Positions 1 through 62,440 of a DNA stretch of 64,000 bases are shown here, in pieces. The stretch is from positions 2,764-66,763 of IMG/VR virus record IMGVR_UViG_3300030031_000041; one strand, written 5' to 3'. How positions within the stretch are numbered: the first letter of the stretch is position 1; each line of letters opens with the position of its first letter. Under the pieces are notes generated by a model. The model worked only from the letters and a program-made list of their open reading frames with translations, did no database searches and was not told the origin of the DNA. The position numbers were made by a program, and so were the translations under genes. The DNA is from a virus.

Positions 1-1
1 G

Positions 2-388
2 AAAGTTTCTGAGATCGGAGAACTGGAAGCGGTTATTGATTGTGAGGAATTAAGACCGTACATTTCTCCGTCGTACTACGAAACACAGTCCAGAGAATCC
101 ATGATTATTCGTAAAATGCGTAACAACATCATGAAGTCTATTCCTAAGAAATGGGATAATCCGGTGCAGGCTTATGAATATAACACGATGGATGCCACAT
201 ACAGAGAAGTGCAGGAAGAAATCGAACAGAACGCTAACAAAGAGGAATTCATTCCAGAGCCAATGGCAATCGAAGAACAGCCTAAACAGCCAACAGTCGC
301 AGAAGTCGTAAAGACTGCCGAGAAAGAACCAGTTCCGGCAGCAGTTGTTGAGCCAGAGATTCCAGATTTTATGAAGCAGGAGGAATAA
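2..388 (+). CDS. hypothetical protein, 5-prime partial (frame open to window start)
   Basis: ORF track 101..388; same frame has no stop back to nt 2; acidic/Pro-rich C-terminus. Confidence 0.4.
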   Translation, partial: KVSEIGELEAVIDCEELRPYISPSYYETQSRESMIIRKMRNNIMKSIPKKWDNPVQAYEYNTMDATYREVQEEIEQNANKEEFIPEPMAIEEQPKQPTVAEVVKTAEKEPVPAAVVEPEIPDFMKQEE

Positions 389-400
389 CGAGGTGATAGC

Positions 401-802
401 ATGATCGGGACGTTAGAAGAAGTCATGAAGGATATGAAATATGGCGTACTTGATTTCACAAAGGACGGTAAATGCAGTGGTTGTGGACAATGTTGTAGCA
501 ACTACTTGCCAATATCCAGTAAAGAAATTAAAGAAATTAAACGTTACGTAAAGAAGCATCATATCACTGAACAGAAGCATAATTATCCTTCAGTTGTGGC
601 ATTTGACCTTACTTGCCCGTTCCTGGATGATTCCAAGTCAAAAGAAAAATGTCTTATATATCAAGTGAGACCTGAGATATGCAGAGATTTTGTCTGCAAC
701 AATCCGAACGGGGCAATCAAAAACAAGAAACTTATGCATAAGAAGTACGCAGCAGTAGATATGCGAGAAATATTTTTTGGAGGCAACGGGAATGAACAAT
801 AA
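401..802 (+). CDS. YkgJ/UPF0153-like Cys-cluster protein
   Basis: CSGCGQCC (CxxCxxCC) motif near N-terminus plus second Cys pair; RBS GAGGTG upstream. Confidence 0.5.
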   Translation: MIGTLEEVMKDMKYGVLDFTKDGKCSGCGQCCSNYLPISSKEIKEIKRYVKKHHITEQKHNYPSVVAFDLTCPFLDDSKSKEKCLIYQVRPEICRDFVCNNPNGAIKNKKLMHKKYAAVDMREIFFGGNGNEQ

Positions 803-1394
803 AGAAATTTTACAGAAAGCAAAGGAACTGGTTGAACTTCTGGAAAAACAGGAAGAAGCTGACAAAGTTGTGCTGTCAACACTGAAACGAGGAGATGTGT
901 TTCAGACCACTGGAAAGCGTAAATACAAGGTTCTGGAACAGTATGGAGATACAACGAAAATTATTTCGCTTGATCTGGTGAAAGAAAAGGTAGAGTTTGG
1001 TGATACCTTAGATTACAAAACATCAAAGGTAAAGAAACTGTGTGACACTGAAATCCTGAAAGACTTCGAAGAAGAATTCGGGGCAGGAAATATCGAGACA
1101 CACACAGCAGATATTATCACTGCGGATGGACAGAAATTGTGGACTGTTGATTGTAAAATTCGACCGATTACGTTTGATGAAGCACGAGAATACACAGATA
1201 TTACACCGAACAATGATCTGAACGACTGGTATTGGACGTTGTCGCCATGGTCGACAGAAGAGCGCGGTTGGAGTAGAAACTTAGCCGTTGTTTCCCCTTC
1301 GGGCTGTATCGGCGGCCGCCGTTGCGTCGGGGGTGGTGTTCGCCCAGTTTGTATCTTAAAATCTAATATCTTTGTATCTAAGGTGGAGGAATGA
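792..1394 (+). CDS. DGR variable (target) protein 1, C-terminal CLec-like variable region
   Basis: VR1 at C-terminus; W-rich motif DWYWTLSPWST before VR, ends ...VVSPSG..GVRPV; RBS GGAGG 8 nt before ATG 792. Confidence 0.75.
   Translation: MNNKEILQKAKELVELLEKQEEADKVVLSTLKRGDVFQTTGKRKYKVLEQYGDTTKIISLDLVKEKVEFGDTLDYKTSKVKKLCDTEILKDFEEEFGAGNIETHTADIITADGQKLWTVDCKIRPITFDEAREYTDITPNNDLNDWYWTLSPWSTEERGWSRNLAVVSPSGCIGGRRCVGGGVRPVCILKSNIFVSKVEE
1286..1345 (+). repeat. DGR variable repeat VR1 (plus IMH-like GTTTGTATCTT to ~1357)
   Basis: aligns to TR 2393-2457; 14 substitutions all at TR adenines plus one AAC codon deletion. Confidence 0.8.
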
Positions 1395-1996
1395 TTGTGA
1401 AGAAAAATCTGAAATATTTTGAGGATGAATTATCCAGATTAAGTAAAGAGTTCACAGAATTCAAGAAAAAGCACATCGGAAAGCCGGAAATCGGAAAAGC
1501 TATTAAGCTTGCTGGCATGGAATGGCTGATTCTGGATAATACAGAAAAAGGATATTTTGCCATTTTGAATGGATTTGATGGAAAAGAAAGAACATTTGAT
1601 TCAGATTCAAATAACTGGATTTCAAGTAAACTGAGAAATGAGTTAAACACTCGTTTTCTTAAAAAAATTACGGACGAGCTTGGAGAAGATGCAGTTATTG
1701 AGCTTGATCGAGATTTGCTTTCTCTGGACGGTCAGACAGAATACGGACATTGTAAAGATAGGATTTCACTTTTGACTGTGGATGAGTACCGGAAATATCG
1801 TAAATTGCTGCCGAACATGTCGAAATGGTGGTGGTTGATTACGCCATGGAGTACACCAGTAAATGATTACAGTACAACAATTACCGTTGTTTCCCCTTCG
1901 GGCTATATCTTCTTCATCCATTGCTACAACGTTCTTGGTGTTCGCCCGGTTTGTATCTTTTCTTCTTCAATCTTTGAAACAGGAAATGATGATTGA
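1391..1996 (+). CDS. DGR variable (target) protein 2, paralog of target 1
   Basis: VR2 at C-terminus; KWWWLITPWST motif; start overlaps stop of target 1. Confidence 0.75.
   Translation: MIVKKNLKYFEDELSRLSKEFTEFKKKHIGKPEIGKAIKLAGMEWLILDNTEKGYFAILNGFDGKERTFDSDSNNWISSKLRNELNTRFLKKITDELGEDAVIELDRDLLSLDGQTEYGHCKDRISLLTVDEYRKYRKLLPNMSKWWWLITPWSTPVNDYSTTITVVSPSGYIFFIHCYNVLGVRPVCIFSSSIFETGNDD
1883..1947 (+). repeat. DGR variable repeat VR2 (plus IMH-like GTTTGTATCTT to ~1959)
   Basis: 65-nt alignment to TR with 10 mismatches, all at 10 of the 18 TR adenines, no non-A differences. Confidence 0.85.
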
Positions 1997-2367
1997 TGGC
2001 GAATGAAGATTTAAAGGTAATAACAAAGGCCAAGCAACTTGCAAAGCATACATTAATAGTTACGAGTAATGCCAGACGATACCCGAAAAAATACAGGTTT
2101 TCACTTGTAGATAAAATGCAAAATAAAGCATTGGAAATTTATGAGTTACTATTTGAAGCCAACCGAACTGATCTGAAAGATTATAAAAGAGAACGATTAG
2201 AACTTCAAACAAAAGCCATTACTTATTGTGATGAGTTGATGTACTTTATAGAACTTTCATATGAATTAGGAATTATCAATTCCGGTGGAATGGAAGCATG
2301 GTCGCAAATGGTAAAAGATATAAAGTACATGACTATTTCATGGAGAACAAAAGACAGAAAAAGATAA
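1993..2367 (+). CDS. avd: accessory variability determinant (Avd)-like protein
   Basis: 124 aa basic helical ORF located between targets and TR/RT, the canonical Avd position. Confidence 0.6.
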   Translation: MMANEDLKVITKAKQLAKHTLIVTSNARRYPKKYRFSLVDKMQNKALEIYELLFEANRTDLKDYKRERLELQTKAITYCDELMYFIELSYELGIINSGGMEAWSQMVKDIKYMTISWRTKDRKR

Positions 2368-2392
2368 TTTTCACAGGTTATGCACTGCGAAT

Positions 2393-2457
2393 ACCGTTGT
2401 TTCCCCTTCGGGCTATATCAACAACAACCATTGCAACAACGAAAATGGTGTTCGCCC
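2393..2457 (+). repeat. DGR template repeat (TR), intergenic, AAC-rich
   Basis: intergenic copy of VRs with A at every variable position (AACAACAAC..AACAAC GAAAAT); 3-prime flank differs from VR flank (IMH* vs IMH). Confidence 0.85.
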
Positions 2458-2562
2458 AACATGGATCACATGCAGACAGAGTAAGCGTAAAGCTGAAATC
2501 AGAAAAGATACAAGCAAATGCATAACCTTTCCGCAATGGACAAACATAAAGGAACAAAATAA

Positions 2563-3582
2563 ATGGATAAAGAAATTGTTGCAAATTTTGAGAATTTATA
2601 TCGTTCTTACAAAAAGGTTAAGAGCGGTAAAAAATTTAATTCAGGTACTGCAAGATTTTCTAATTTGTCTCTTGAAGGCATTCATCTCTTGAAGGAACAA
2701 TTAGAAAGTCAAACGTATACCATAAATCCGTATAATAAATTTCAAATTCATGAGCCAAAAGAGCGAACGATAGAATCATGTGCATTTAAGGACAAAGTAG
2801 TGCAGAGATGCTTTTCTGATTACATTTTGACACCAAAACTTGAAAATATCCTGATTAAATGGAACACTGCCGGGCAGCAAGGAAAAGGGCAACACATGGC
2901 AATGGACGGGTTAAAAAATCAAATGTTGGATTTCTATAAAAGAAATGGAATGAATAGTTGGATTGTAAAATGTGATATTCACAAATACTTTTATTGCATA
3001 GACCATGAAATCATGAAAGATGTTTTGGATTATTACTTTGATGATGATTTTACAGTCTGGTTAAACCATTTGTTTATTGACAGTACAGGTAATCCCGGGC
3101 TTCCATTAGGAAATCAGGTAAATCAGAAGTACGCATTGTTGCTTTTACATTCACTGGATCAGATGATAACGATTGAATTTGGAAATCCATATTACGGACG
3201 ATACAACGATGATTTTTATGTGATTTGTAAAACGAAAGAAGATGCCAGAGAAATTCTTGAGGCAATCCGAAAGATGGTTGAAAGCCTTGGACTGGAACTA
3301 AACCCTAAATCACAAATTGTACCATTTCGCATGGGCTTGTGTTATCTGGGCTTTCATCATTACGTGACTGATGAAGGAAAATATATCAGAAAATTGCGTG
3401 GTGATAAGAAACGAAAAACACAGAGAAAAATCCGAAGATGGGTACGGGCAGTAAATGACAGGAAGATGTTGATAGAAAAATTTCATGAAAAATACGGAGC
3501 ATGCAAGAATCATATGCTTCATGGAAATTGCACCAAACTATGCCATAGTATGGATTTGGATATTGAAAGGAGAATGAAGTGA
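2563..3582 (+). CDS. DGR reverse transcriptase
   Basis: RT motifs: LPLGNQVNQ (DGR-type [I/L]GxxxSQ-like motif 4), YNDDF catalytic box (YxDD), 339 aa. Confidence 0.85.
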   Translation: MDKEIVANFENLYRSYKKVKSGKKFNSGTARFSNLSLEGIHLLKEQLESQTYTINPYNKFQIHEPKERTIESCAFKDKVVQRCFSDYILTPKLENILIKWNTAGQQGKGQHMAMDGLKNQMLDFYKRNGMNSWIVKCDIHKYFYCIDHEIMKDVLDYYFDDDFTVWLNHLFIDSTGNPGLPLGNQVNQKYALLLLHSLDQMITIEFGNPYYGRYNDDFYVICKTKEDAREILEAIRKMVESLGLELNPKSQIVPFRMGLCYLGFHHYVTDEGKYIRKLRGDKKRKTQRKIRRWVRAVNDRKMLIEKFHEKYGACKNHMLHGNCTKLCHSMDLDIERRMK

Positions 3583-3932
3583 AATTAATTAGTCAGAATG
3601 GGGAATTTGATGTTCCTTATGAAATTGCAGTATTAAGTAGAACAGGAAATATCATAAGAGTATATGTGCCGATAGTTGGTGAAAAAGGAACAATTATGGC
3701 GACATACTCAACAGAAGAAAAGGCTAAGAAAGTTATGGAAATGTTGCACAACACATATACAGGAGCATTCTTCGCACAGAATATAGAAGTTCCAGAAGAT
3801 ATCGAAAAGGAATTTATGAATATGGCAGCAACAAAAGGTTTTGGAATTATTAAAACTGCTATTGATAGTTCTGATATAAAATTCGAACCGGCAAACATTG
3901 TGTTTAGATTTCCAGAGGATGATGAAGTATGA
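3579..3932 (+). CDS. hypothetical protein (paralog of 8662..9003; both end FxxPEDxEV)
   Basis: GTG start with RBS; shares YSTEEKAKKV..../PEDDEV pattern with 8662..9003. Confidence 0.5.
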   Translation: MKLISQNGEFDVPYEIAVLSRTGNIIRVYVPIVGEKGTIMATYSTEEKAKKVMEMLHNTYTGAFFAQNIEVPEDIEKEFMNMAATKGFGIIKTAIDSSDIKFEPANIVFRFPEDDEV

Positions 3933-4132
3933 AAAGAGTAGACAGTAAGAAAGACTGGGAACAGGTAATAACCATTGAACTTCCGTTGAAGCAACTCAAA
4001 TTAATGCGAGATAGCATGTGCAAAGTAAGCTATGCGGAGTTAGAGAGCCTAAATAAAGGAAAAGACATTCCATATGCCTATTCCGATTTAGAAAAAGCCA
4101 TAGATGAAGTTGAAAATATCTTAGAAGCATAA
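3929..4132 (+). CDS. hypothetical protein
   Basis: ORF track, start overlaps upstream stop. Confidence 0.4.
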   Translation: MKRVDSKKDWEQVITIELPLKQLKLMRDSMCKVSYAELESLNKGKDIPYAYSDLEKAIDEVENILEA

Positions 4133-4163
4133 ATGCAATGTACAGAAAGCGAGGTGATGTCAT

Positions 4164-4925
4164 TTGTTCATGCGAGTAATTTCAACAGGTAGTACCAAAG
4201 GAAATTGTTACGCTTTGCAGTCAAGTGCAGACGAGATTGTTCTTCTTGACTGCGGATGCAACTACAAGAAAATCCTCAGAGGGATTGACTACCAGATAAG
4301 CAATGTTTCTGGCGTACTTCTCTCCCATGAACACGGAGATCACACTGGCAATCACAACAAAACTGTTCGTGAAATCATGAACGCTGGAATCACGGTCTAT
4401 ACCGGAGCAGAAACAATCAAAAATTTAGGCATAACGGACGGAACTATAAAAGCTGTTGCTAAAAAGAAATACTTCAAAATCGACTCGTTCAGCGCAGTTC
4501 CGTTCAGCCTGCCACATACATCTGCAAATAAAGAGCCGTGCCCGAACTTCGGGTATCTAGTGGAACATGAGGAAATGGGAAAGCTTCTTTACCTGACAGA
4601 CTTTGAGCATTGCCGGTACAAATTCAAATCAATGGAACTTAATCATTTGGTTATTGGTTGTAATTACTGCGAGGAGCTGATAGACAGAAACAACTCGAAG
4701 TGGGAGCACCAGATCACTGGGCATTGCTCTTTATCAACTTGCAAGCAATTCGTTAAGCAGAATCGCACAGAATCGCTTCGGACAGTAACACTTGTACATT
4801 TAAGTGGGGATTCATCTGATGCCCGTAAAATACAGCGAGAAATACAAGAAGTTACAGGAAACAATGTTCTGGTTCAGATTGGACGGGCTGGACTGGAAGT
4901 TGACTTGAATTTATGCCCGTTCTGA
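4164..4925 (+). CDS. MBL-fold metallo-hydrolase
   Basis: LSHEHGDHTGN (HxHxDH) motif. Confidence 0.65.
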   Translation: MFMRVISTGSTKGNCYALQSSADEIVLLDCGCNYKKILRGIDYQISNVSGVLLSHEHGDHTGNHNKTVREIMNAGITVYTGAETIKNLGITDGTIKAVAKKKYFKIDSFSAVPFSLPHTSANKEPCPNFGYLVEHEEMGKLLYLTDFEHCRYKFKSMELNHLVIGCNYCEELIDRNNSKWEHQITGHCSLSTCKQFVKQNRTESLRTVTLVHLSGDSSDARKIQREIQEVTGNNVLVQIGRAGLEVDLNLCPF

Positions 4926-4936
4926 AAGGAGATAGG

Positions 4937-5161
4937 ATGATAAATTTAAAAAATTGGAAAGAGGTTACGAAAGGGCTTTACAGATATGTTGTTTCATCAA
5001 ATGTTGCATACGAAATTCACGTCAAATATTGGGACATGGACACAGACATTTTAAGTGCGAATGCAAGTCTGTACATTGTTGGTGATTGGCGTTCGAGAGA
5101 TGGAAAAACACAAGAGAAAGAGAGCGCTTACTTGAATCTGCGCCTGTCATGGCTTGCTTAG
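4937..5161 (+). CDS. hypothetical protein
   Basis: ATG 4937 preceded by AGGAGATAGG; ORF track 4913..5161. Confidence 0.4.
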   Translation: MINLKNWKEVTKGLYRYVVSSNVAYEIHVKYWDMDTDILSANASLYIVGDWRSRDGKTQEKESAYLNLRLSWLA

Positions 5162-5321
5162 CCAAAGCAGAAGAAGATAATATTGAAAATAATGTCGAAT
5201 CTTAGAGGAGATAAGCCATGAACGAATTAACTGATTGTAGCAAATGTAGATTCCGTAATTGCTGTACGTTAGCATGGGATTACGGCTCGCTTTACTGTAA
5301 CGATTATGAGGAGGAAGATAC

Positions 5322-8320: not shown

Positions 8321-8668
8321 ATGGAGAAATTAAAACCTTGTCCGTTTTGTGGAGGAAAAGCAATAACCGAATGTTGGGCTAGTGGAGGCATTATGTACAT
8401 GGTTAAGTGCGGTAATCCAGATTGCGTTGTACCAGCGGAAGGTTATCCTTCTGGAAGAAATTTGACAGCTGTAAGAGAACAGTGGAATAGGAGGGTAAAA
8501 AAAATGAGCTACTGTGGCGGAACCTGTAAGTATCTGAATACAAGAAAACACAAATGCGAATTGACAGGAGAAAAACTCACATACATGACAAACAGTTGTG
8601 GAATCGAGTATTCAGTGCATGAGCACAGAGGATTCTGTGAGAAAGACAAGGAGGACGCAAAATGCTAA
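8321..8668 (+). CDS. Lar-family restriction-alleviation-like Zn-ribbon protein
   Basis: N-terminal KLKPCPFCGG motif and WNRR motif characteristic of Lar family. Confidence 0.5.
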   Translation: MEKLKPCPFCGGKAITECWASGGIMYMVKCGNPDCVVPAEGYPSGRNLTAVREQWNRRVKKMSYCGGTCKYLNTRKHKCELTGEKLTYMTNSCGIEYSVHEHRGFCEKDKEDAKC

Positions 8669-9003
8669 TCAGAAGTCAGGATAATAAAACACTGTTTAAT
8701 TTCACGCAATGCATCAATATTGGAGAGCACGGAAAAGGTGCTGTGATTTATGTTAATAATTTGTATCCGGCAGGCGAGTATTCTACCGCAGAAAAAGCTT
8801 TAAAGGTACTGGATATGATTCAGGATGCATACATGGAGTACAAATCTGGCGAAATTGTTGGCAACGGGCTGGCGGGATCAGCATATACAGGAAGCTATGA
8901 TACAAAAGAAAGTGTGGCGCATGGAATTGCTGTATTAAAAGGCTATGGAAATGAGATAAGAAAATCAATCCTGTTTCAGATGCCAGAAGATAGTGAGGTG
9001 TAA
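8662..9003 (+). CDS. hypothetical protein (paralog of 3579..3932)
   Basis: RBS AGGAGG; YSTAEKALKV.. and C-terminal QMPEDSEV shared with 3579..3932. Confidence 0.5.
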   Translation: MLIRSQDNKTLFNFTQCINIGEHGKGAVIYVNNLYPAGEYSTAEKALKVLDMIQDAYMEYKSGEIVGNGLAGSAYTGSYDTKESVAHGIAVLKGYGNEIRKSILFQMPEDSEV

Positions 9004-9005
9004 GT

Positions 9006-9182
9006 ATGAACAAGACCAATATTGGCTCTTTGAAACATGGAGATGTTTTCCAATATAAATGCGAAATGTATAGAGCTGGACATGTAATCGAAAATACAGA
9101 TGGATATGTTTCTTGCACAAATATCAAAACACGCAAAGTTGAAAGGATTTACATAGATACAGAAGTGGAGGTGGAAGTATGA
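9006..9182 (+). CDS. small hypothetical protein
   Basis: ATG 9006 in frame to TGA 9182; GDVFQ motif also seen in DGR target 1 N-terminus. Confidence 0.35.
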   Translation: MNKTNIGSLKHGDVFQYKCEMYRAGHVIENTDGYVSCTNIKTRKVERIYIDTEVEVEV

Positions 9183-15079: not shown

Positions 15080-15097
15080 ACATGATATGTGCGGCAC
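15080..15097 (+). repeat. inverted repeat arm L (ACATGATATGTGCGGCAC) upstream of recombinase
   Basis: 17/18 match to reverse complement of 16533..16550. Confidence 0.6.
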
Positions 15098-15122
15098 ATT
15101 TCTACACAAAGGAGGAATAGTC

Positions 15123-16487
15123 ATGGAATGTGTTGCGTATTTGCGTGTATCAACAGAAAAACAGGCCGAAGAGGGAAATGGATTAGACAGTCAGAAAAGA
15201 GATATTGAAAATTATTGTAGAAAAAATCAATTGATTATATCTGATTGGTACGAGGATGACGGCTTCACAGGTTCGAATATGAATCGTCCAGCATTGCAAC
15301 GCTTAATTAATGATTGCTCAAAGAAAAAATTAAAATGTGTTGTAGCGTTTAAACTAGATCGATTATCAAGAAGCATGGTCGATGGAATATACTTAATTGA
15401 ACGTGTATTCATACCTAATGGGGTGGATTTTAGATGCGTGCATGATAGTGTAAGCTACGACAGCCCAATGGAGCAAGCATACACTCAGATGATGGCAGTG
15501 TTTGCGCAACTTGACAAAAATACTATGTTGCTTAGAATGCGTGGCGGTATGCTGGAGCGAGTGAAACAGGGATATTGGATGGGAGGTGGCAACACTCCTT
15601 ATTGCTATAGATATAGCAAAGAAGACGGAATCTTAGTTCCCATACCAGAACGCAAAGAAATGGCTTTGCGAGCTATGAATTTGTATATATCCGGTTATTC
15701 TGATGTTCGAATACATAAATTGATAGGATTTAAAAGCGAGTTTGTTACACGACAGGTTCTTACCAGTCCTGTAAATATTGGCATGATTCCGTATAAAGGG
15801 AAACTATATAAGGGAAGACATGAACCAATTTTCGATATTAAAGTATTTGAATTAGCCCAGGAATTAAGAAAAACTCGTAAGCAAAGTAAAAGCTTCTGTG
15901 TTAATCACGAGAATCAGCTCTTGACGGGGCTGTGCTATTGCGGAGTGTGCGGGTGCAAGATGAGATATCAGAAATGGACTCATGGAAAGCATAAAATTTA
16001 TTGCTATTCAAGGGATAACGGCATGTCGTACTTACCAAATTATAATCCGAATTGCAACAATTCGCTTGAGTGGGCAGAAGATATTGAAAAGCAGGTTGAA
16101 GATGAGATTTTAAAGATTTCCCTCAATTTATCATCGCATAAGCCAAAAGAAAGAGAAAGCTGTCTGGACATTTTGAGTAAACAACTCCAAAAAGAAAAAA
16201 CGAAGCTAAAACGTCTATATACTCTTTATGCTGAGGGAAATGATACGGTTTTGGAGATGATAAAAGAAACGGAATCCGGTATAGATGAATTAAAACTAAA
16301 AATACAGAACGAGATGAAGAGCCCGGATAACTCACAGAAGAAAGAATTTGTATACGATAATATAAAAAAGCTTGCCGATGTGTGGGAACACATTGACAAG
16401 CAAAACAAAAACCGTATATTAAAAACTATAATATCAAAAATAATTATAGTCAATGGAAATATTGAAATACAGTTGAAGAAATTTTAG
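15123..16487 (+). CDS. large serine recombinase (integrase-type)
   Basis: VAYLRVSTEKQ..GLDSQ catalytic N-terminus, recombinase and Zn-ribbon/coiled-coil C-terminal region; RBS GGAGG. Confidence 0.8.
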   Translation: MECVAYLRVSTEKQAEEGNGLDSQKRDIENYCRKNQLIISDWYEDDGFTGSNMNRPALQRLINDCSKKKLKCVVAFKLDRLSRSMVDGIYLIERVFIPNGVDFRCVHDSVSYDSPMEQAYTQMMAVFAQLDKNTMLLRMRGGMLERVKQGYWMGGGNTPYCYRYSKEDGILVPIPERKEMALRAMNLYISGYSDVRIHKLIGFKSEFVTRQVLTSPVNIGMIPYKGKLYKGRHEPIFDIKVFELAQELRKTRKQSKSFCVNHENQLLTGLCYCGVCGCKMRYQKWTHGKHKIYCYSRDNGMSYLPNYNPNCNNSLEWAEDIEKQVEDEILKISLNLSSHKPKERESCLDILSKQLQKEKTKLKRLYTLYAEGNDTVLEMIKETESGIDELKLKIQNEMKSPDNSQKKEFVYDNIKKLADVWEHIDKQNKNRILKTIISKIIIVNGNIEIQLKKF

Positions 16488-25930: not shown

Positions 25931-26002
25931 AGGGCTATCGCCAAGTGGTAAGGCACAGCACTTTGACTGCTGTATTCGCGGGTTCGAATCCCACTAGCCC
26001 AG
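25931..26002 (+). tRNA. tRNA-Gln (anticodon TTG)
   Basis: cloverleaf: acceptor AGGGCTA/TAGCCCA, anticodon loop CTTTGAC, T-loop TTCGAAT; A1:A72 mismatch, one C-A in T stem; no encoded CCA. Confidence 0.65.
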
Positions 26003-26224
26003 CTTGCTAGGTTGCGCATGTACCTGGCAAAGGTTTATTTCACATAGACCCTCCGATACCCATCTAGCTCAACGGAGCTGTCTAAAGGGGCTTCAAACGT
26101 CCCGGATGGGATTCCCGTATAGGTGACAGCAAAACCAAAAAAGGGAGCCTTTGTTGCGACTGGTGGCAAAGAATCGCAACAGTAGAAAATATGGCTTTGA
26201 GGTGCTGGTAATATTTTCTACTCA

Positions 26225-26297
26225 GGAAATTTAGTTCAGTGGTTAGAACGCCCGGCTCATAACCGGCAAGTCCTGAGTTCGAATCTCAGAATTTCCA
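26225..26297 (+). tRNA. tRNA with CAT anticodon (Met or Ile2)
   Basis: acceptor GGAAATT/AATTTCC, D stem GTTC/GAAC, loop CTCATAA, T arm CTGAG-TTCGAAT-CTCAG. Confidence 0.65.
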
Positions 26298-26855
26298 TTT
26301 CTTCCATATGCTGCCCATCCGTTTTATGGGCAGAAAAAACTTTCGGATGAGCGTATGTGAATCAGAATGAGCAAAGATATGTAACGGCATAGGCTTGTGC
26401 TTGATCTGATTTCCCGTCCGATGAATGTTTCTTAGTTTCAATAAGCCATCACAGGTGCACATTGATGACAAGGGAGTTTTCAAGAAACATAAAGTCAAAA
26501 GGCATAATAATATCCGAAACAACTCTGTGTGGCTGACACAGCATAAAACAGTCTAGTGGAAAGCATAACACGATAAACATATTGCTAACCCGGGAATCCG
26601 GGTTATGGGAAAGCGGCAACGATTGGTGGTGTTGCGGCGGTCTGTAAAACCGTTCCCTTGTGGTAAACATTATAGGTTCAATTCCTATCTTTCCCATTGT
26701 TTGGAGACTGAAAGTTTGGTGGTAGGAAAAGCACAGGGCAGTGCGCAGGAATGTATAACCGAGTTCCGAATGCGTACTGTTTATCGGTGATATAGTGACT
26801 TCCTCTAGTAGTCAATAAGTGAACGTGCTGAAATGGTTCTTCCAAACATGTACAT
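26298..26855 (+). ncRNA. candidate large structured ncRNA between tRNAs (ROOL/GOLLD-like location)
   Basis: 558 nt, no credible ORF, many local hairpins; sits between tRNAs. Confidence 0.3.
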
Positions 26856-26927
26856 CGCAGGATAGAGAAGCGGAATCTCGCAAGGTTCATATCCTTGAGA
26901 ACGGCGGTTCAAATCCGTCTCCTGCAA
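26856..26927 (+). tRNA. tRNA with CAT anticodon, C1:A72 mismatch (initiator-like)
   Basis: acceptor CGCAGGA/TCCTGCA, D stem GAGA/TCTC, anticodon stem CAAGG/CCTTG loop TTCATAT, T arm GGCGG-TTCAAAT-CCGTC. Confidence 0.6.
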
Positions 26928-27613
26928 TTTCAAACATGATTAACTCAGTGCAGATAGATTTTCAGTCTAGCTGAGATACAGGGTTATGTAAGATGGAGTA
27001 GTTCGGGATACTGGACTATCAACCATCTTTTTAGCAGAAGTGATTCTGTTAGAGGAGGAAGAAACTTCCAACACACCTTGTAGTGTATCATCATAAAGAG
27101 ACCAAAAGCAGAATCCTTGTGGTCGGCGTACAATAGACGCTTGCTGTGCAAGAATAATCCGTTGATGTGAGTGGTGTGAGAGACCACAGACTAAACGGAA
27201 ATCTCGTTAAGCTGATTTGCCTTGAACCTGAGAAATTAGGGTATAACACAAGAGATTCGTTAAAGTAGCGGTATGGCAATTCATAAAAAAATTTCATGCT
27301 ATAAAAAACATTTTCTGAAAGAACCGTGAAATTTGTGGGTGACACTCCCATGTGTGCTTTGACCGCGGTAAGAAGCTCAGGGTCGCTCCCGAAAGCTCAG
27401 ACTTATCGTCACAGTGGCTGAACATGGTTGCAAGTATGGTGAATAAGGAGAAATCCTAATCGTGGTTGAATATGGTGCATTGCTGTAATGGTATCAGAGT
27501 AGGTTGCTAACCTATCCAACAGAAATGTTGTACACGTTCGAATCGTGTATGCACCGCTCCATCTACCATGAGTAGATAGGAAATCCGACTTTAGCATAGC
27601 TATTGTTGGTTTT
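26928..27613 (+). ncRNA. candidate large structured ncRNA between tRNAs
   Basis: 686 nt noncoding, structured, flanked by tRNAs. Confidence 0.3.
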
Positions 27614-27687
27614 CGGAATGTATCTCAGTTGGGAGAGCGGAGGACGCATAGTCCTTGACGTCGCAAGTTCGAATCTTGCCTTTCCGA
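27614..27687 (+). tRNA. tRNA-like gene with CAT in anticodon loop (atypical G33; possibly degenerate)
   Basis: acceptor CGGAATG/CTTTCCG (one mismatch), T arm GCAAG-TTCGAAT-CTTGC, loop CGCATAG. Confidence 0.4.
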
Positions 27688-27945
27688 TTCCTACGATTGC
27701 CATAGTAGGAATAAATTACTCCTAAAGTATGGTTTGGTTTCCAGTACTCCACGTTGGGTGGCTAGTTGCGGTTCAAGTCCGTGTACTGGAATTTTTGTTT
27801 AAGGATGTGACTTATGGAAGAAAAATGTTGTAAGAATTGCAGAAGACATGATGCTTCACATGGGTTTGTTTCAATGGTGTCAGTGAATATTGTGCAGACT
27901 TTAGATGTCTTGATGATAGTTGTGAATGTTGGGAGGGTGTAAATA

Positions 27946-48698: not shown

Positions 48699-50273
48699 AT
48701 GGCCGATAATACCATAGATACCCTCAATATACAAATAGACAGTAGCACAACTCAGGCGGTACGGTCTATTAATAACCTTGTAAAAAAATTAGATACATTA
48801 AACACTGCCCTTGGAAATCTTGACATAAGCCGGTTAAATAATTTTTCCAATTCTTTAAAAAGTTTAGGTAGCGTGAATTTTAAAGCAAATGGATTGAATG
48901 CGGCTATAAACGCTATCAATCGTCTTGGAAAATCCGATTTCAGTCAGTTTGATACAGGGAAATTAGGCAAAATTCTTACTGAGATGCAGAAACTTGATGC
49001 TATTCCAGATGTTTCTCCGAGCGTTAGCCGGTTTACAACCGCTATAGCTAAACTTGCCGGTACAGGACAGTATATCGGCAATGTATCAAAGGAACTTCCG
49101 AATCTTGCGACAGGTTTAAATAATGCGGCTACTAAATTAGGCTCTATGAGTGAAGTATCAGCATCCACCAATGCCTTTATTACTTCTCTTGGAAAATTAG
49201 CTGGTGCAGGAGATAAAACTGGAAAGACTGCAAGTCAATTATCAACTCTCGCGCAAGAGGTTTTGAAGTTTTTTGACGTAATGAAAAGTGCACCAGATAT
49301 CAGTTCGAGCACAATAAGAATGACAGAAGCTCTTGCAGTATTAGCATCGTCTGGAAGCAAAGTAGGGCGTGCCACAAGTATCGTTTCGAATTCATTTAAC
49401 ACGCTTTCTTCGTTAGGTTCAAAAGCAAGTACTGTAATCAATGGGCTGACAAATGCTTTTCAAAAATTTGCTTCAAAAGCTATTTCTTTAGGCGGAAAAG
49501 CCGTATCTGCAATCGCAGGTATTGGAAATGCATCTTCTGAAGCTGGTGAAAAAATAAGAAGATTGTCAAATCCTCTGAGTTCGGTAACGAATAAGTTGAG
49601 TGCTCTTTACGCCAAAGGTTTTCTCGCAAAAAGAGCATTAGATGTTCTGGCATCGCCAGTAGAATCCGCAATGAACTATGTAGAGACTCTGAACTATTTC
49701 AACTCTGCGTTCAATCAGGTGGCAGAAGGAATCAACACTGACGAATGGAAAAAAAGTGGCATAAAATCCGCTGAAGCATATGCAAATTCATTCCAGGAAA
49801 GGGCAAAACAGCTTTCACAGAAACTGACAGGATTCGAAATTTCAGATACTGGTGAACTGGCTAGAACCAATACCGCTAGTCTTGGACTTGACCCAGAAAA
49901 AACAATGCAGTATCAGGCAACATTTGCACAGATGGCATCATCTATGGGCGATACATCAGAGACTGCATTAAAATTGTCTAATGCACTCACTATGATTGGT
50001 GCAGATCTTGCTTCTGTAAGAAATATGGACTTCGAGGATGTATGGCAGGACATGGCATCTGGCTTGACTGGTATGAGCCGCGCTATGGATAAGTACGGCA
50101 TTAATATCCGTAATGCCAACATGCAACAGGAACTGTATAATCTTGGGATTAATACCAGCATATCGAAGTTGTCTCAGGCAGATAAAACGATTTTGAGAAC
50201 GATTATCTTGCTAAACAACTCTAAGTATGCATGGGCTGATTTGTCAGAAACGATAAATAGGTCAGTAGCGTGA
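48699..50273 (+). CDS. tail tape measure protein, 5-prime part (exon 1 candidate)
   Basis: 524 aa Ala/Ser/Leu-rich helical; ends DLSETIN.. just before intervening sequence. Confidence 0.65.
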   Translation: MADNTIDTLNIQIDSSTTQAVRSINNLVKKLDTLNTALGNLDISRLNNFSNSLKSLGSVNFKANGLNAAINAINRLGKSDFSQFDTGKLGKILTEMQKLDAIPDVSPSVSRFTTAIAKLAGTGQYIGNVSKELPNLATGLNNAATKLGSMSEVSASTNAFITSLGKLAGAGDKTGKTASQLSTLAQEVLKFFDVMKSAPDISSSTIRMTEALAVLASSGSKVGRATSIVSNSFNTLSSLGSKASTVINGLTNAFQKFASKAISLGGKAVSAIAGIGNASSEAGEKIRRLSNPLSSVTNKLSALYAKGFLAKRALDVLASPVESAMNYVETLNYFNSAFNQVAEGINTDEWKKSGIKSAEAYANSFQERAKQLSQKLTGFEISDTGELARTNTASLGLDPEKTMQYQATFAQMASSMGDTSETALKLSNALTMIGADLASVRNMDFEDVWQDMASGLTGMSRAMDKYGINIRNANMQQELYNLGINTSISKLSQADKTILRTIILLNNSKYAWADLSETINRSVA

Positions 50274-50570
50274 TAAATGCGTAGCTACTGGCAAGTCGCT
50301 CATATCGAAACCGTCAAGTAGGATATGAGTTATTAGTGATGAAATAAGCTGGAAAGCCGTTTGCAACGGTAATCAGAGAGTGAAGGCTATGATTAAAAGC
50401 ATAGTCAACCGCAACGCGTAGGAAGTGAAACTGTAGTTGAGATACTACAGAATATAATCTTCCCAAGAGGCATCACTATCGGACGGTACAGGTGCAGAGC
50501 CTGTGGTAAAAAGGTACGCTGGACATGCATTGTAATAATGCAGAAGTGAGGATAAAAAGCCTTACGATAA
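50257..50570 (+). other. 314-nt intervening sequence (group I intron candidate) flanked by 7-bp repeat ACGATAA
   Basis: removal joins 48699.. frame to 50564.. frame exactly; highly structured, multiple stops. Confidence 0.5.
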
Positions 50571-53500
50571 CAAATCGAAATCAACCGGCAAATCAGATTC
50601 GTATGCTTCAATCTAACTTTGCATCCCTTGGTAGAACAATAGGTTCCTTATTCATTCCTATACTGCAAACAGTACTTCCATATATCAATGCAATAGTAAT
50701 CGCAATACAAAGAATGTTCGCTTATATTGCAAAACTTCTTGGAATCAAACTGTCAAACTTCGTATCATCTACTGGTGGTATTTCTGTAGATACCGGAGAT
50801 ATTGCAGATAATATGGATAATGCCAGTGGCGCAATTGATACAGCAAATTCTAATGCTAAAAAACTTGAAAAAACATTATCTGTTATGTCCTTCGATGAAC
50901 TGAATCAGCTCAACGATAACTCTGATTCTAGCAGCTCAACTACTCCGTCTTCTGGTTCTGGAACAGGCGGTTTGGGGCATATCGGAGCACTTGACGCAGC
51001 TTTGGACGATGCTTTATCTGCTTATCAAAAAGCATGGGACGAAGCATTCAAGAAAATGTCCAACAGAGCAAATGAGATGGCAGATGCTATCGTGAATGCC
51101 TTTAAGAGAAAAGACTGGAAAGGTCTTGGAAAAATCATGGCTGACGGCATTAACTGGGGAATGCAAAAGCTTTATGATTTCATTAACTGGAATAACGTAG
51201 GCCCTTACATCACTAAATTCACCAGTGCGTTCACCCAGACTTTCAACAGCCTTGTTGATAATATCAACTGGGATTTGATGGGACGTACCGTTGGAGCTGG
51301 TATGAATACTATTGTAAATACTGCAAACCAACTTCTGGAAGGAATCGACTGGAAGAACCTTGGTGCTAAATTTGCCAATGGTATCACTGGCCTTGTTCGT
51401 GAAGTGAATTGGGAAAACTTCGGCAATCTGCTTGGAAATTCCTTTATGCGTGGATGGGATATTTTCTCAGGCTTCGTAGAAAATCTCCAGTACGGAGAAA
51501 TTGGAACAGCTGTCGCAGAAGGCTTGAACGGAATCTTTGAAAAGATTAATTTCGGTGAAATTGCTCATACACTTGCAACTGGATTGAATGGTGCTTTTGA
51601 TACATTGGCTTCATTTACAGCAAGCTTTAATTGGGAAAATCTTGTTGATAACATTACAAATGGAATCACCACATTCATGCAAGAATTCAACTGGAAAGAG
51701 AATGGACAGAAGTTAGAAGAATTTATTAACAAATTACTCACGTCACTTATCGAGATTGCAAGGGGTGTCGATTGGGAAGCGTTTGGACACAATGTAGGCG
51801 TATTCCTCAGTGAAATTGACTGGGGAAAACATCTTGCACAGTTACTTACGGTTATCGGAGACGTTCTTGGTGGAATCTGGGAAGGACTTGGAACAACATC
51901 TGCCGGCACATTTGTTCAAGCTATGGCTGTATTTGCAGTTGGTAATAAGCTCATGCCATTAGTTGATACAATTACTAAGTTTTTTACAGGTGATACTGTA
52001 TTTGGAAATCTTTCTAAAGCTGTACGAGGTATGCTGAGTCCCGCAATCACAGAAGCAGTCTCAACAACTATTCCGGCTCTTGGGACATCGTTAGGCTCAC
52101 TTGTTGCAACTGGTGGTGGAATTGCTCTTGCAGTAGATGGTGCAGTATTACTTACCAAGAAATTAGCAGGACTTTTTGAGACCATGCAAGGTGGTAATGG
52201 AATGACTACACAGTATGGTGGTTATCTCCATGATTACGCAACACAGCTGACTGATGTAGCAAATCTTACAAACGATCAATCGGAAGCGTTGTGGCAGCTT
52301 ATTGAGAAGGATGAAGAACTTGGAAAAACTCACGATGAAATGTACTCTGATATGGTTGAAAAATTGAAAGAGTATGGCGTTTCATCCGATCAGGCTAGAA
52401 CAGCTCTTGAGCAGTATGGCGCACAGGCCGGTGTATCGGCTGAATTTGTTGAGGGTATGACTAATCAAATCTCCGCACTTGGAGATGGCGTGTCAGAAGC
52501 AGCTGGTAAATTCGATACATCAAAAATCAGTATTTCGGATTTGAAAGACGAGCTATACTTATTGAGTCTGAAATCTGACGATTTTGGTGGTTCATACAAA
52601 ACAGCCATGGACGAACTTGATAATGCTAATAATGGTGGAACTATCACAAATACCAAAGATGCATTAGATACAGTCTACACTTCATTGAAGAATGCAGGAG
52701 TTCCACTCGATGAACTGAACAACAAACTTGCAAAAGACTTCCCGAACGCTACGTTAGCCACAAAATCAGCAGTAGACAAGAATATTGTTGGAGCACAGCA
52801 GACTATATCAACATCAGTTGGACAGGCATCAAGAGACACTCAAACAGCCACAAATCAAATGGCAAAAAATGCCACAGATGATTTCTCGGAAATCCAGAAA
52901 CAGGCTGATACTTACATGAAAGGCATGGAAACTACAACTACTAGCTCATGGGGAAATTCTTCCAGAGAAGCGACATTAAAGGCAAGGGAGATGAAAAATG
53001 CCGTAAGTACAGAACTTGGAAATATGGACAAATCTGTAACAAGCCATTTCCAAAGTCAGTACAACATTGCTTATAAGAAATGGGAGAATATCGGAAGAGA
53101 TATCTCTTCTTATGTTTCTGGAAGTATGTCAAAGAGTATGGATAGCTCTTTAAATAGCTTTATGAGAACTATTCGCAGCGCATTCAGTGATATGTACAGC
53201 ATTGGCCATAATGCGGCTCAATCATTAAGAAATGGAATGAAATCCGTGAGAATGCCTACGCTTTCGTATTATATTTCTCAGTGGAAAACACATAGCCTTG
53301 GGAACGGCGGTACCAGTTCAACCCCTGTCTATAGTCCGAACTGGTATGCAAAAGGTGGTTTGTTCAAAAATGCATCTGTCATTGGTGTAGGCGAAGCAGG
53401 ACAGGAAGCTGTTCTCCCTTTGGAAAATCGTAAAGCCATGAAATCCATTGCCGACAGCATCATGTCCGGCTATGACGGCAACATGGGACTTACGAAAGAT

Positions 53501-53683
53501 GAGATCATGGAAGCTGTCGAGCGTGGCGTAGTTACTGCTTTGATGAACAATGGTGGTTTTGGCGGTTCTTCACCAGAGTACATCATGAACAGCATCAAAG
53601 TGAACGAGCGTGAACTGGCGCGAATTGTCACAAAGGCTCAGAACAACACAGATTACCGCATGAATCCGTCCCCGGCATATTGA
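50571..53683 (+). CDS. tail tape measure protein, 3-prime part (exon 2 candidate)
   Basis: continues TMP core motif PANQIRMLQ..LGRTIGSLFIPIL; 1000+ aa. Confidence 0.65.
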
Positions 53684-54039: not shown

Positions 54040-54172
54040 TTTTGGTAAAACCAGTAGGCTAGGGTAGCTCCCGAAAAGTGTAATTCCATGATACACCTGC
54101 CTACTGTTTTTATAAATCATGGATCTGTGGCTACAAGGCAGTCACGCATTAACGACATGGAGGTTATCTATT

Positions 54173-55333
54173 ATGAGCGAACAAATCAAAGAATTATCCC
54201 AAAATGAATTAGAAAGAAAAGTAGATTACATATTTTCACATAGATTTAATCACACTCTGCATGCTTATATCGATATTGCAGGTGATTTAACAGCAGGTGT
54301 TTTATTATCTCAAATTATGTACTGGTTTGATAAAGATTCAAAAAATGAGTGCGTCAGAACAAAAATCAAAAAGAAAGGTTATTTTTGGATTGCTAGGCGT
54401 AGAGATGAATGGGCAAACGAAATAAGAGTTGCACCTAAGCAGTATGATTCTGCGATGAAAAAATTAAAAGCTAGAAATTTGGTAGTTGTTGAAAAATTTA
54501 AAATTAATGGTGCTCCAACAACGCATATCAGACCTAATGATGAAGTAATAAATGTTGCTATTAAAGAATGGAAAGAACAAATTGCTCTTGAAATTATCAA
54601 AGACAACGAAGCGGAACAAAGTGACGTGAATTCCTCAAATCAGAATTTACCAGAAGAGGAAAATCACGAAAAAGTAGTGCCAAATGATGATAAACACTGG
54701 TTTTCCCCAAAAGAGGAATTTCCAAATTCCCAAAACAAGGAAAACCATGGAATTTCCCAAAATGGGAAAATGGAACTTCCCCAAAATGGAAACTCTTTAA
54801 TTAATAAGAACTATAATAAAGATTTAGATGAGGTTTATAAAAAGAGGGTTAAAGATTCTGATACTACTAAAGTAGTACCAGTAGATTCTCCATGTCCGGG
54901 TAAGCCGGAAACAAGGAGCATCCAGTCTCCACTCGGAATGGGAATAAGCGAAATCCTTTTGAGGAAAGGAATAAACCAATATTGGAATGATGTAGGATGC
55001 GAAGAGTATGAAGAATTGAAAACAAATGTCACTAATGTCATATTATATTTTTTGGAAAAATACAAAATTAAACTAGGCAAAAGCCATGTTCATTTAAAAG
55101 AAGAATATATAAAAACCGTAGTAGAAGGAATTGTTACAGTACCAGACGAGATGATTGAGTTGATAGATGCTTATGGCTTTGAGTATATTTATAAATCATG
55201 CATTGACATGTATTTTGATACAAAATTCAGAGAAGATACCAATTATCGTATTTTTCATTTCATAAAAGGTGATATTAGGAAAAATATTGCAATGAAACTT
55301 TCAGACCAAATAGAGTTGATAAGCGATAAATAA
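54173..55333 (+). CDS. replication-initiator-like protein (inserted module)
   Basis: RBS GGAGG before ATG 54173; N-terminal wHTH-like region, Asn/Lys-rich middle. Confidence 0.45.
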   Translation: MSEQIKELSQNELERKVDYIFSHRFNHTLHAYIDIAGDLTAGVLLSQIMYWFDKDSKNECVRTKIKKKGYFWIARRRDEWANEIRVAPKQYDSAMKKLKARNLVVVEKFKINGAPTTHIRPNDEVINVAIKEWKEQIALEIIKDNEAEQSDVNSSNQNLPEEENHEKVVPNDDKHWFSPKEEFPNSQNKENHGISQNGKMELPQNGNSLINKNYNKDLDEVYKKRVKDSDTTKVVPVDSPCPGKPETRSIQSPLGMGISEILLRKGINQYWNDVGCEEYEELKTNVTNVILYFLEKYKIKLGKSHVHLKEEYIKTVVEGIVTVPDEMIELIDAYGFEYIYKSCIDMYFDTKFREDTNYRIFHFIKGDIRKNIAMKLSDQIELISDK

Positions 55334-60964: not shown

Positions 60965-62440
60965 ATGGAAATTAAAGGAATTGACGTATCATCGTGGCAA
61001 GGGAAGATCGATTGGAATAAGGTTGCAAATTACGGAATGGATTTTGCAATCTTGAGAATTACAGAAGCCGGAAATGTTATTGATGGACAGTTCGAGAACA
61101 ACTTTGCCGGATGCAATAAATATAAAATTCCAGTAGGAGTATACAAGTATTCCTATGCTTCGACAGTATCCGAAGCCCGGAGTGAAGCCAGAAAGGTTGT
61201 TTCCGTACTGAACGGAAGAAAGATTCAGTTTCCAGTATTCCTCGACTTAGAGAATCATAGACAGAGAGTACTTGGAGCTGAAAGTATTCATAATCTGGCA
61301 GAAGCATTCAGAGAGATTATTGTTGCTGCTGGTTATAAATTTGCAATCTATTGCAATCTTGACTGGTACATGAATGTGATTTGCAGTCACCTCAAAAAGC
61401 ATGATTTCTGGATTGCCAGATATCCGGCAAATGATAACGGGACAGTAGTTGAGAGATTACGTCCAAGTTGGGGTGTTGGCTGGCAGTACAGCTCAAAAGC
61501 AACGATTCCAGGAATTAATACCAAAGTTGATAGAAATATATTTTATAAAGATTATACAGAAGCAAAGGAGAGTGGAACAATGGCAAAGACAAAAGAACAG
61601 ATTATCCAGAATGTGAAAAACGATGCAGTAAGCTTTGCGGTAAATATTGCCAATGATAACAGTCATGGATACAGTCAGAGAATTAGGAGTTTATACGAAA
61701 TTAACATTCCGAAATCTTTTGACTGTAGCTCATTGGCACTTACTGCTTATTACTATGCGTTCCTCAAAAATGGGCTTACCAAACAGGCGCGTTATCTCAA
61801 AGAGAATTGCTCTTATACTGGCAATATGCTCAAGATGCTGAATGCCGGATTTGAGGTTGTCGCTAGGAATCAGACCGCACACAAACAGATGATAAAAGGC
61901 GACCTGGAACTGGCGGACAATAATCCGAATGGATCCAATAGTCATGTAGCAATGGCGATTGGTAAGAACGACATTGTTCATGCCAGAAGTTCGGAGGGCA
62001 CAAAAGATACGAAAGATAATTCTGGAAATGAGATCCGTACACAGCCCTGGTACCTGTACAGTCACGGATGGACGCATCGTCTTAGATTTACTGGAAAAGG
62101 AATTGATTTTAGTGGACTTACCAATACTACTGGAAGTAAGCCTACCGCAAAACCATCAACTAGCACAAAACCATCAACGACCACATCGAAAGGAGCCGGT
62201 TATATGTTTGAGCCAAAATTAGTAAAACTTGGAAGCGAAGGAACTTCTGTCCTGTTGCTTCAAGAGATTTTGATCGCAAGAGGATTTAAAGGAAAAAACG
62301 GGAAAGCACTGAGCTTATCCAGAAAAGCAGATGCAAATACCATTTATGCATTAAAACAGTATCAGAAATCCAGAAACGGGGTTCTGAGCGTTGACGGGGA
62401 ATGCGGAAAGAACACCTGGAAAGATTTGATTGCCATCTAA
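60965..62440 (+). CDS. endolysin: GH25 muramidase N-terminus, middle domain, C-terminal peptidoglycan-binding repeat
   Basis: GIDVSSWQGKIDW..DFAILR (GH25 signature); PG_binding_1-like C-terminus. Confidence 0.7.
   Translation: MEIKGIDVSSWQGKIDWNKVANYGMDFAILRITEAGNVIDGQFENNFAGCNKYKIPVGVYKYSYASTVSEARSEARKVVSVLNGRKIQFPVFLDLENHRQRVLGAESIHNLAEAFREIIVAAGYKFAIYCNLDWYMNVICSHLKKHDFWIARYPANDNGTVVERLRPSWGVGWQYSSKATIPGINTKVDRNIFYKDYTEAKESGTMAKTKEQIIQNVKNDAVSFAVNIANDNSHGYSQRIRSLYEINIPKSFDCSSLALTAYYYAFLKNGLTKQARYLKENCSYTGNMLKMLNAGFEVVARNQTAHKQMIKGDLELADNNPNGSNSHVAMAIGKNDIVHARSSEGTKDTKDNSGNEIRTQPWYLYSHGWTHRLRFTGKGIDFSGLTNTTGSKPTAKPSTSTKPSTTTSKGAGYMFEPKLVKLGSEGTSVLLLQEILIARGFKGKNGKALSLSRKADANTIYALKQYQKSRNGVLSVDGECGKNTWKDLIAI

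Follow-up and report, generated by a model that had tools for sequence, protein, structure and literature searches.

A 64,000-nucleotide stretch of IMG/VR virus record IMGVR_UViG_3300030031_000041 (positions 2,764 to 66,763; hereafter the window) encodes a complete diversity-generating retroelement (DGR). The usual view of phage DGRs is that they switch host range by acting on tail fibres. The only targets found in this window are a pair of small proteins with a predicted lectin fold. The source of the window is a temperate siphophage of gut Clostridia, with Blautia as a lead for the host. We estimate a probability of roughly 0.55 that the two targets are early-expressed, non-tail, probably hetero-oligomeric hypervariable binders that function in the infected cell.

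The DGR spans positions 792-3582 and comprises target 1, target 2, Avd, a template repeat (TR) and a reverse transcriptase (RT), in that order (Table 1). All genes from the CxxCxxCC gene that precedes target 1 through the RT gene (401-3582) are co-directional and overlap or are tightly spaced. The original prediction described two targets of about 200 amino acids, encoded back-to-back with overlapping stop and start codons, and the open reading frames (ORFs) bear this out: target 1 has 200 residues from a start at 792 (205 from a TTG at 777), target 2 has 201, and the two genes share an ATGA at 1391-1394. The start at 792 has a GGAGG 8 nt before its ATG, and a database protein (P0271) is 100% identical to the 200-residue form; the alternative TTG start lacks a ribosome-binding site. 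Target 2 overlaps Avd in turn, through a TGATG at 1994-1998. A TTG at 1993 is an alternative start for Avd, and relatives call a 123-residue gene at the same place. The Avd protein also matches the NCBIfam model DivGenRetAVD (E 1.6e-10, 41 bits, under the cut-off of 80) and, under their cut-offs, the Pfam models 23S_rRNA_IVP and bAvd. The RT gene begins 105 nt after the end of the TR and encodes the motifs PLGNQVNQ and YNDD, which we take to resemble the DGR-type [ILV]GxxxSQ motif and the YxDD catalytic motif. A promoter and terminator scan of window positions 1-5200 returned nothing beyond shuffled expectation.

Three copies of a TR-like repeat, and only three, occur in the window: the TR itself and one variable repeat (VR) in each target. 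All 14 substitutions that distinguish VR1 from the TR fall at TR adenines, as do all 10 mismatches between VR2 and the TR core. The exception to this adenine rule is one in-frame 3-nt deletion in VR1, which is rare among relatives of target 1, nearly all of which have 201 residues. The claim that both proteins are DGR targets therefore holds. In the VR frame the TR translates as TVVSPSGYINNNHCNNENGVRP and is rich in AAC codons, as DGR templates typically are. Scans of the 64 kb, tail module included, with a degenerate TR pattern (up to 3 mismatches; 0.00 chance matches expected) and with the 3' 12-mer (up to 1 mismatch) found no third VR. The 3' side of both VRs carries GTTTGTATCTT, where the TR instead has ACATGGATCAC (2459-2469), an asymmetry that may mark recipient and donor by analogy with the initiation of mutagenic homing elements IMH and IMH* of BPP-1 (PMC3240598). 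A search for a BPP-1-like hairpin or cruciform 3' of the VRs gave no convincing GC-rich inverted repeat. The substitutions are one-sided in each copy. Twelve of the 14 adenines changed in VR1 became G, giving a Gly/Arg-rich loop (CIGGRRCVGGG), while 9 of the 10 in VR2 became T, giving a hydrophobic loop (YIFFIHCYNVL).

Database searches returned 4299 relatives of target 2 and 3937 of target 1 (E ≤1e-3), and the close relatives come from contigs of up to ~84 kb and more, the nearest from contigs of ~78-84 kb. We calculated per-column entropy from alignments of the best 120 relatives of each target, which are 83-100% identical. Entropy is ~0 in both proteins except at residues 172-182, where values climb to as much as 3.3 bits and as many as 13 residue types occur; it is 2.5-3.3 bits across this interval in VR2 and up to 3.3 bits at residues 172-181 in VR1. 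The VR sequences also differ among four related loci (L001-L004). The DGR is complete and active: because entropy is limited to residues 172-182 and the VRs of L001-L004 differ, both targets are undergoing diversification in natural populations. In the middle of the VR hairpin, Cys178 of target 2 (1915-1917) derives from a TGC codon in the TR (2425-2427). The VR cysteine is mostly kept within the hypervariable stretch (entropy 1.2-1.3 bits), because its TGC codon contains no adenine. The other cysteines of the targets that are common in the family are at positions 121 and 187/188.

The two targets are paralogs, as had been predicted from the sequence (BLASTP, 37% identity over 134 residues, E 4e-24). 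Target 2 passes the gathering score of the Pfam family DUF6273 (PF19789; 23.5 bits), whereas target 1 falls below it and is tied to the family through its homology to target 2 and its match to phrog_9958. A homolog search among 1.84 billion cluster representatives identified 1325 clusters at E ≤1e-3, mostly of proteins with 170-270 residues. The shared tryptophan-rich motif to which the original prediction had drawn attention (DWYWTLSPWST / KWWWLITPWST) is present and proves to be the conserved core of the whole family, with the consensus WWWLxTPxST and one tryptophan at least 90% conserved across 61 diverse homologs. A second motif, GDVFQ, is indeed found both in target 1 (position 891) and in the small ORF at 9006-9182 (position 9039), while the proposed link between the two is at chance level: 17 pentapeptides of target 1 recur in the six-frame translation of the window, against 4-18 for eight control proteins. 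The link was rejected as chance, with 8 of 15 residues matching and an hhalign probability of 4% against the family profile. In target 1, GDVFQ lies on the domain's first beta-strand, at a point where the family has the consensus G-x-x-F and the glycine hardly varies.

AlphaFold2 (AF2) modelling from 61-66 diverse homologs gave confident structures (pLDDT 95.4 for target 2 and 95.2 for target 1) that share one predicted architecture: an N-terminal helix (residues 2-27 in target 2, 3-23 in target 1) followed by one globular domain. This domain has a predicted C-type-lectin-type fold with the VR at its C-terminal end, and in both models the VR is predicted to form a beta-hairpin at residues 173-183 (strands 173-177 and 181-183 in target 2). 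Both helices are amphipathic, and that of target 2 has a clean heptad pattern with hydrophobic residues at 7 of 8 a/d positions. Structure comparison links the fold to DUF1566/Lcl, to TvpA and to many C-type lectin domains, and Foldseek is concordant; going by the models, it is the standard ligand-binding scaffold of DGRs. Structure prediction thus sides with the original prediction in giving a lectin-fold domain plus a helix rather than anything resembling a tail fibre. Neither Pfam nor the AF2 models give any tail-attachment, beta-prism or immunoglobulin (Ig) domain in the targets, and an NCBIfam search gave no match for either protein. Longer members of the family carry no further Pfam domain besides DUF6273, which is sometimes present twice, and a tblastn search of the plasmid database PLSDB had no match.

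Each target is a soluble protein of ~23 kDa. Neither has a signal-peptide-like N-terminus or an anchor; the most hydrophobic 19-residue stretch scores 1.1-1.5 and lies within the VR region, so that no segment is strongly hydrophobic. The original description of the targets as cytoplasmic-looking does not discriminate between locations, since virion proteins, too, are put together in the cytoplasm and carry no signal peptides. The missing signal peptide accordingly fails to separate a binder in the infected cell from a virion-borne adhesin.

We next consider the two targets as a pair. Two tandem copies are present in 42 of the 58 loci tabulated in a neighbourhood survey (described below), with a gene spacing of -23 to +38 nt, and the pair persists across Clostridia families at identities as low as ~30%. 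When the C-terminal 40 residues were removed to exclude homogenisation of the VRs, the closer match of each protein was its positional counterpart at other loci and not the partner encoded beside it, and this held for all 42 loci with two copies. By this comparison the targets are two anciently diverged lineages held together, not recent duplicates. Five natural fusions of two DUF6273 domains (P0122, P0144, P0147, P0170 and P0237; 355-411 residues) are equivalent to a fused target 1-target 2 protein. The ancient paired lineages, the tight spacing and the natural fusions thus point to joint action of the two proteins, probably in a hetero-oligomer, and the pair is probably translationally coupled.

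Within the window, the targets (792-1996) lie ~47 kb upstream of the tape measure gene and ~55 kb upstream of the gene for a 1322-residue tail protein. The tail module occupies ~48.7-60.4 kb, and no tail gene bears a VR. The corresponding locus of L001, which has 90% DNA identity to the window across 4.7 kb, reads as follows: a helix-turn-helix (HTH) repressor on the opposite strand, ORF6N, a single-stranded DNA-binding protein (SSB), an AAA ATPase, RecT, the CxxCxxCC protein, target 1, target 2, Avd, RT and a second SSB. A 54% identical relative (P0124) has SSB, AAA_23, both targets, Avd, RT and RecT; a 38% identical one (P0149) has AAA_23, RecT, one target and Avd; and a 33% identical one on a 115-kb contig (P0185) has a ligase, Metallophos, one target and RT. 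Targets of characterized phages are similarly placed. In FP_Toutatis, gp24 is flanked by methyltransferases and prohibitin on one side and by a regulator and replication initiator on the other, in FP_Brigit gp06 stands right behind the HTH switch and ahead of exonuclease and RecT, and nd4_tgt2 is ahead of DNA polymerase III, SSB and DnaC genes. Short homologs thus sit in the early recombination/replication region in every context examined.

A scan restricted to one genome per species yielded 51 loci in Lachnospiraceae, Oscillospiraceae, Acutalibacteraceae, Christensenellaceae and other Clostridia. For the neighbourhood survey, ORFs were called in 59 loci and clustered, cluster representatives were annotated, and 58 loci were tabulated. 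The DUF6273 cluster has 99 members in 55 loci, accompanied by Avd in 39 and RT in 37. On the opposite strand upstream we find a tyrosine integrase (18 loci), an S24-HTH repressor (12) or a serine recombinase (7), with additional HTH proteins upstream in either orientation (11 and 6 loci). Of the 44 loci whose upstream flank measures 5 kb or longer, 32 have an integrase or HTH cluster there. Same-strand neighbours include SSB (19 plus 8 loci), a REP_ORF2-type initiator (13), a metallo-beta-lactamase-type (MBL) hydrolase (9), AAA_23 (8), ERCC4 (7), Lin1244 (7), RNase H (6), a methylase (5) and an HNH nuclease (5). SSB, replication initiators, ERCC4, RNase H, MBL proteins and methylases recur on either side of the targets. 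The large terminase subunit (TerL) appears in 5 loci, at +3.8 to +8.5 kb. Matches of 111 large neighbours to PHROGs are to anti-repressors, helicases, primases, replication initiators, RecT, methyltransferases, phosphoadenosine phosphosulfate (PAPS) reductase, TerL and portal, and no tail family is among the top 25. As a positive control, a long DUF6273 protein of 608 residues from a Moorella phage adjoins a 'central tail fiber J'. By gene order, then, the pair lies on the lytic-operon side of the integrase/repressor switch and outside the tail module.

Short DUF6273 proteins are already known as DGR targets. Short DUF6273-only targets were described as nd4_tgt2 and nd12_tgt2 (PMC10743442), 'small' targets were described in Lelie and CP11 (PMC11792537), and Toutatis gp24, whose gene precedes the TR by 17,480 nt, counts as core in 98.8% of related phages (bioRxiv 10.1101/2024.10.15.618418). 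With such targets published and the fold a standard C-type-lectin DGR scaffold, the two proteins belong to a known DGR target family and do not represent an unknown kind of target. The targets of nd4, nd12, Toutatis and Lelie resemble ours in having a single DUF6273 domain, short flanking helices and a C-terminal VR hairpin; published short targets align with 86-89% of target 2 at 28-33% identity (tblastn) and are likewise encoded amid early and replication genes. Phages of this type, however, combine one short target with one long target with Ig domains, a 'tentaclin', and in Toutatis 17 kb separate the short target from the RT. In the window, two short targets form a conserved tandem pair directly upstream of Avd, TR and RT, and no long target is encoded. 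Our targets contain no Ig or fibronectin type III (Fn3) domain and end just past the DUF6273 domain. The long Toutatis and FP01 targets adjoin tail genes according to the published papers. The literature searched contained no statement of a two-lineage tandem pair, of a systematic early-operon position or of a phage DGR with only such targets.

More distant systems show a similar mixture of likeness and difference. The BPP-1 DGR (mtd-avd-TR-brt) shares the order target-Avd-TR-RT, a C-terminal VR in a C-type-lectin fold, an AAC-rich TR, adenine-only mutagenesis and a VR-specific 3' element absent from the TR. Mtd is encoded with tail genes, whereas the two 200-residue targets here are encoded in the early region and their genes lie neither in nor beside the tail module. 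Mtd has 381 residues, with an N-terminal beta-prism and beta-sandwich, and its trimer is thought to be attached to the tail fibre (PMC10743442); our targets lack the beta-prism and beta-sandwich ahead of the lectin domain. The suggested comparison with Mtd, TvpA and DUF1566 thus yields a structural relation to TvpA and DUF1566/Lcl, with neither membership in their sequence families nor the N-terminal domains of Mtd. Scaffolds with a related fold are the C-terminal domain of Legionella Lcl (DUF1566, 8q4e), Treponema TvpA (2y3c) and a Bacteroides fimbrial tip protein (4eps), and a Pfam search at E ≤0.1 gave no DUF1566 (PF07603) or FGE-sulfatase match in the targets. Lcl, TvpA and the fimbrial tip protein are bacterial surface proteins with export signals. 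The only solved DUF6273 domain is the N-terminal one of the Thomasclavelia ramosa IgA protease (PDB 9qa6; PMC12402451). Unlike our targets, this protease is a secreted 137-kDa bacterial metallopeptidase that is not described as a DGR target and carries no VR. A precedent for a role off the virion is the second DGR target of Quimbyvirus, which was proposed to be non-structural (Benler et al. 2021, PMC8008677). Like our targets, and likened here by description only, it has a C-type-lectin domain and is encoded away from structural genes; Quimbyvirus differs in being a Bacteroides phage with one structural and one non-structural target and with methyltransferases, a nuclease and a tRNA ligase nearby.

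As far as sequence can show, a single 64-nt TR, together with Avd and RT, rewrites the same 11-residue beta-hairpin (residues 172-182) in both proteins through adenine-specific mutagenic homing. In the role that we propose, the two proteins would be made together, early after infection or induction, and would associate through their helices into a hetero-oligomer that exposes two independently diversified binding hairpins. Such a pair would work off the tail as a hypervariable binder whose variable ligand lies within the infected cell; a host defence or takeover target is one example. Since an early protein would be expressed from the very genome bearing the new allele, each variant could be directly exposed to selection. 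The more specific proposal that this DGR serves counter-defence or host takeover, with the early-operon hetero-pair acting as an antibody-like binder of variable host proteins instead of in adsorption, is tentative, and we would put it well short of even odds.

The original prediction had held that the targets are not receptor-binding tail proteins. Their architecture and early-region context agree with that statement, while a non-structural role is plausible but unproven, and a number of points weigh against it. We infer both the expression timing and the cellular location of the targets from gene order, which is their sole basis, and joint action as a hetero-oligomer is likewise deduced from sequence. 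Because many of the 59 loci may descend from common ancestors, their counts do not represent independent events. The early-region placement might reflect the expression needs of the RT and TR instead of the function of the targets, an explanation countered by Toutatis, whose short target sits 17 kb from its RT. The N-terminal helix could equally dock onto a virion component, and DUF6273 also occurs in long, probably virion-borne proteins, namely the tentaclins and the receptor-binding and tail-collar entries of BFVD. The authors who described the short targets presumed receptor binding and gave no localisation (PMC10743442; PMC11792537; bioRxiv 10.1101/2024.10.15.618418), and the literature searched yielded no proteomic data for short DUF6273 proteins. 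Lastly, PADLOC found no defence or anti-defence match among the targets and their neighbours, with only the RT matching generic RT and defence-associated RT (DRT) models.

Several of these points would favour virion-borne accessory adhesins in the manner of Mtd, with helices docked on the tail fibre, baseplate or capsid and diversified tips that bind receptors or glycans. We regard this as a possible reading, though one that we would not expect to prevail. It fits the fold class, which is that of Mtd, TvpA and pilus-tip adhesins, the use of DUF6273 in tentaclins and other presumed receptor-binding proteins, the choice that earlier authors made for nd4_tgt2, nd12_tgt2 and Toutatis gp24, and host-range switching as the paradigm for phage DGRs. 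It is harder to square with targets that lack a tail-attachment domain, with early-operon placement in ~59 loci where no tail family is among the 25 commonest neighbour families, and with a phage that already has a VR-free host-specificity tail protein of 1322 residues. The occurrence of the cassette on contigs of ~49-115 kb with differing neighbours also speaks against one specific docking partner.

It is improbable, in our judgement, that the targets are instead extracellular lectins, made by the lysogen or freed at lysis, that bind bacterial or gut glycans or immunoglobulin to the benefit of the phage or lysogen. Such a role has been proposed for the DGR-diversified DUF6273 tentaclin of Mushuvirus, which was found in the bacterial secretome, with a DGR that is active during lysogeny (bioRxiv 10.64898/2026.05.08.723808); this provides a precedent for a DGR target expressed and secreted in lysogeny. 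The IgA protease with the only solved DUF6273 domain is, moreover, a secreted protein of a gut bacterium and probably anchored to the cell wall. That tentaclin is, however, a long Ig-domain protein and not the short form, our targets have neither signal peptide nor anchor, and they are encoded on the lytic-operon strand downstream of the repressor/cro switch, not at the usual positions of lysogenic-conversion genes. We give hardly any credence to the notion that the targets are decaying, duplicated leftovers of a longer tail protein that still bear VRs. Their shortness and the 3-nt deletion in VR1 could be taken as signs of decay, but neither ORF is disrupted, the models show a complete domain folded with confidence, nearly all relatives of target 1 are full-length with 201 residues, the pair is retained to ~30% identity across Clostridia families, and hypervariability is restricted to the VR of otherwise conserved proteins.

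Dozens of prophages of major gut Clostridia share this arrangement, and close relatives are found widely across public metagenome assemblies. If the non-structural reading is correct, a large share of gut-phage hypermutation would serve a purpose other than adsorption, and such a function of DGR targets could be tested in inducible Lachnospiraceae lysogens. If the targets are instead virion-borne, receptor-binding proteins can be encoded in early operons, which would matter for annotation and host-range prediction. The pair and its early-operon architecture thus make the question of non-structural phage DGR targets experimentally approachable.

Table 1. Coordinates of the DGR cassette, the gene ahead of it and siphophage genes of the window.
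Feature	Position	Strand	Remarks
CxxCxxCC Zn/Fe-chelating-domain protein	401-802	+	Pfam PF03692, E 1.3e-11; phrog_32498
Target 1 (position-1 paralog), 200 aa	792-1394	+	phrog_9958, E 3.6e-20; DUF6273, 18.1 bits
VR1 in target 1	1285-1345	+	61 nt, residues ~165-185
GTTTGTATCTT, putative IMH-type element 3' of VR1	1347-1357	+	read from sequence
Target 2 (position-2 paralog), 201 aa	1391-1996	+	DUF6273, 27.7 bits; phrog_9958
VR2 in target 2	1884-1947	+	64 nt
Second GTTTGTATCTT copy, putative IMH-type element 3' of VR2	1949-1959	+	read from sequence
Avd, 123 aa	1996-2367	+	phrog_3206 'Avd protein of DGR', E 2.5e-24
TR core	2394-2457	+	64 nt, 17 adenines
DGR reverse transcriptase, 339 aa	2563-3582	+	phrog_1423, E 5.9e-87; RVT_1, E 5.5e-13
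TerL	32568		siphophage gene
Portal	34803		siphophage gene
Major head protein	37472		siphophage gene
Tape measure	48699-53683		siphophage gene
Tail/host-specificity protein, 1322 aa	56417-60385		without VR
Endolysin	60965-62440		siphophage gene

The remaining observations concern other genes of the phage and its relatives. The 3' end of the CxxCxxCC gene overlaps the start of target 1, and this gene is not a conserved neighbour elsewhere (3 loci in the neighbourhood survey). Ahead of it is a partial gene (2-388, + strand) whose product has last 65 residues 78% identical to the C-terminus of the RecT-family protein of L001 and preceding 63 residues that do not align to it, which suggests a swapped recombinase with a conserved acidic tail. 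The repressor switch of relatives maps upstream of the left end of the window. A serine-recombinase-type integrase of 466 residues (15087-16487, + strand; phrog_95, E 1.7e-96) is encoded midway through the early region, in the same direction as the genes around it. In Toutatis, gp23 was considered as a hidden position-1 paralog and rejected (hhalign probability 0.7%).

Two features of the tail module stand out. The tape measure gene is split into parts at 48699-50273 and 50525-53683 that match positions 1-195 and 198-914 of phrog_28918 and are separated by a gap of ~250 nt; an intervening sequence, a frameshift or an assembly error could be the cause. Between the tape measure and the 1322-residue tail protein, an ORF at 54119-55333 encodes a DnaD-like/replication-O-like protein of 404 residues, with an int-alpA RNA motif (RF02996, 54 bits; 54052-54122, + strand) immediately upstream, and may be an inserted element or moron within the tail module. 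A full-length ROOL RNA (RF03087, 384 bits, model 1-574) is encoded at 26920-27477 (+ strand) amid six tRNA genes (Gln, Met, Tyr, Met, Ser, Met) of a cluster at 25931-27688. Two small ORFs on the + strand, at 3579-3932 (117 residues) and 8662-9003 (113 residues), both match phrog_25456 and end alike (FRFPEDDEV and FQMPEDSEV), and the former overlaps the stop codon of the RT gene.

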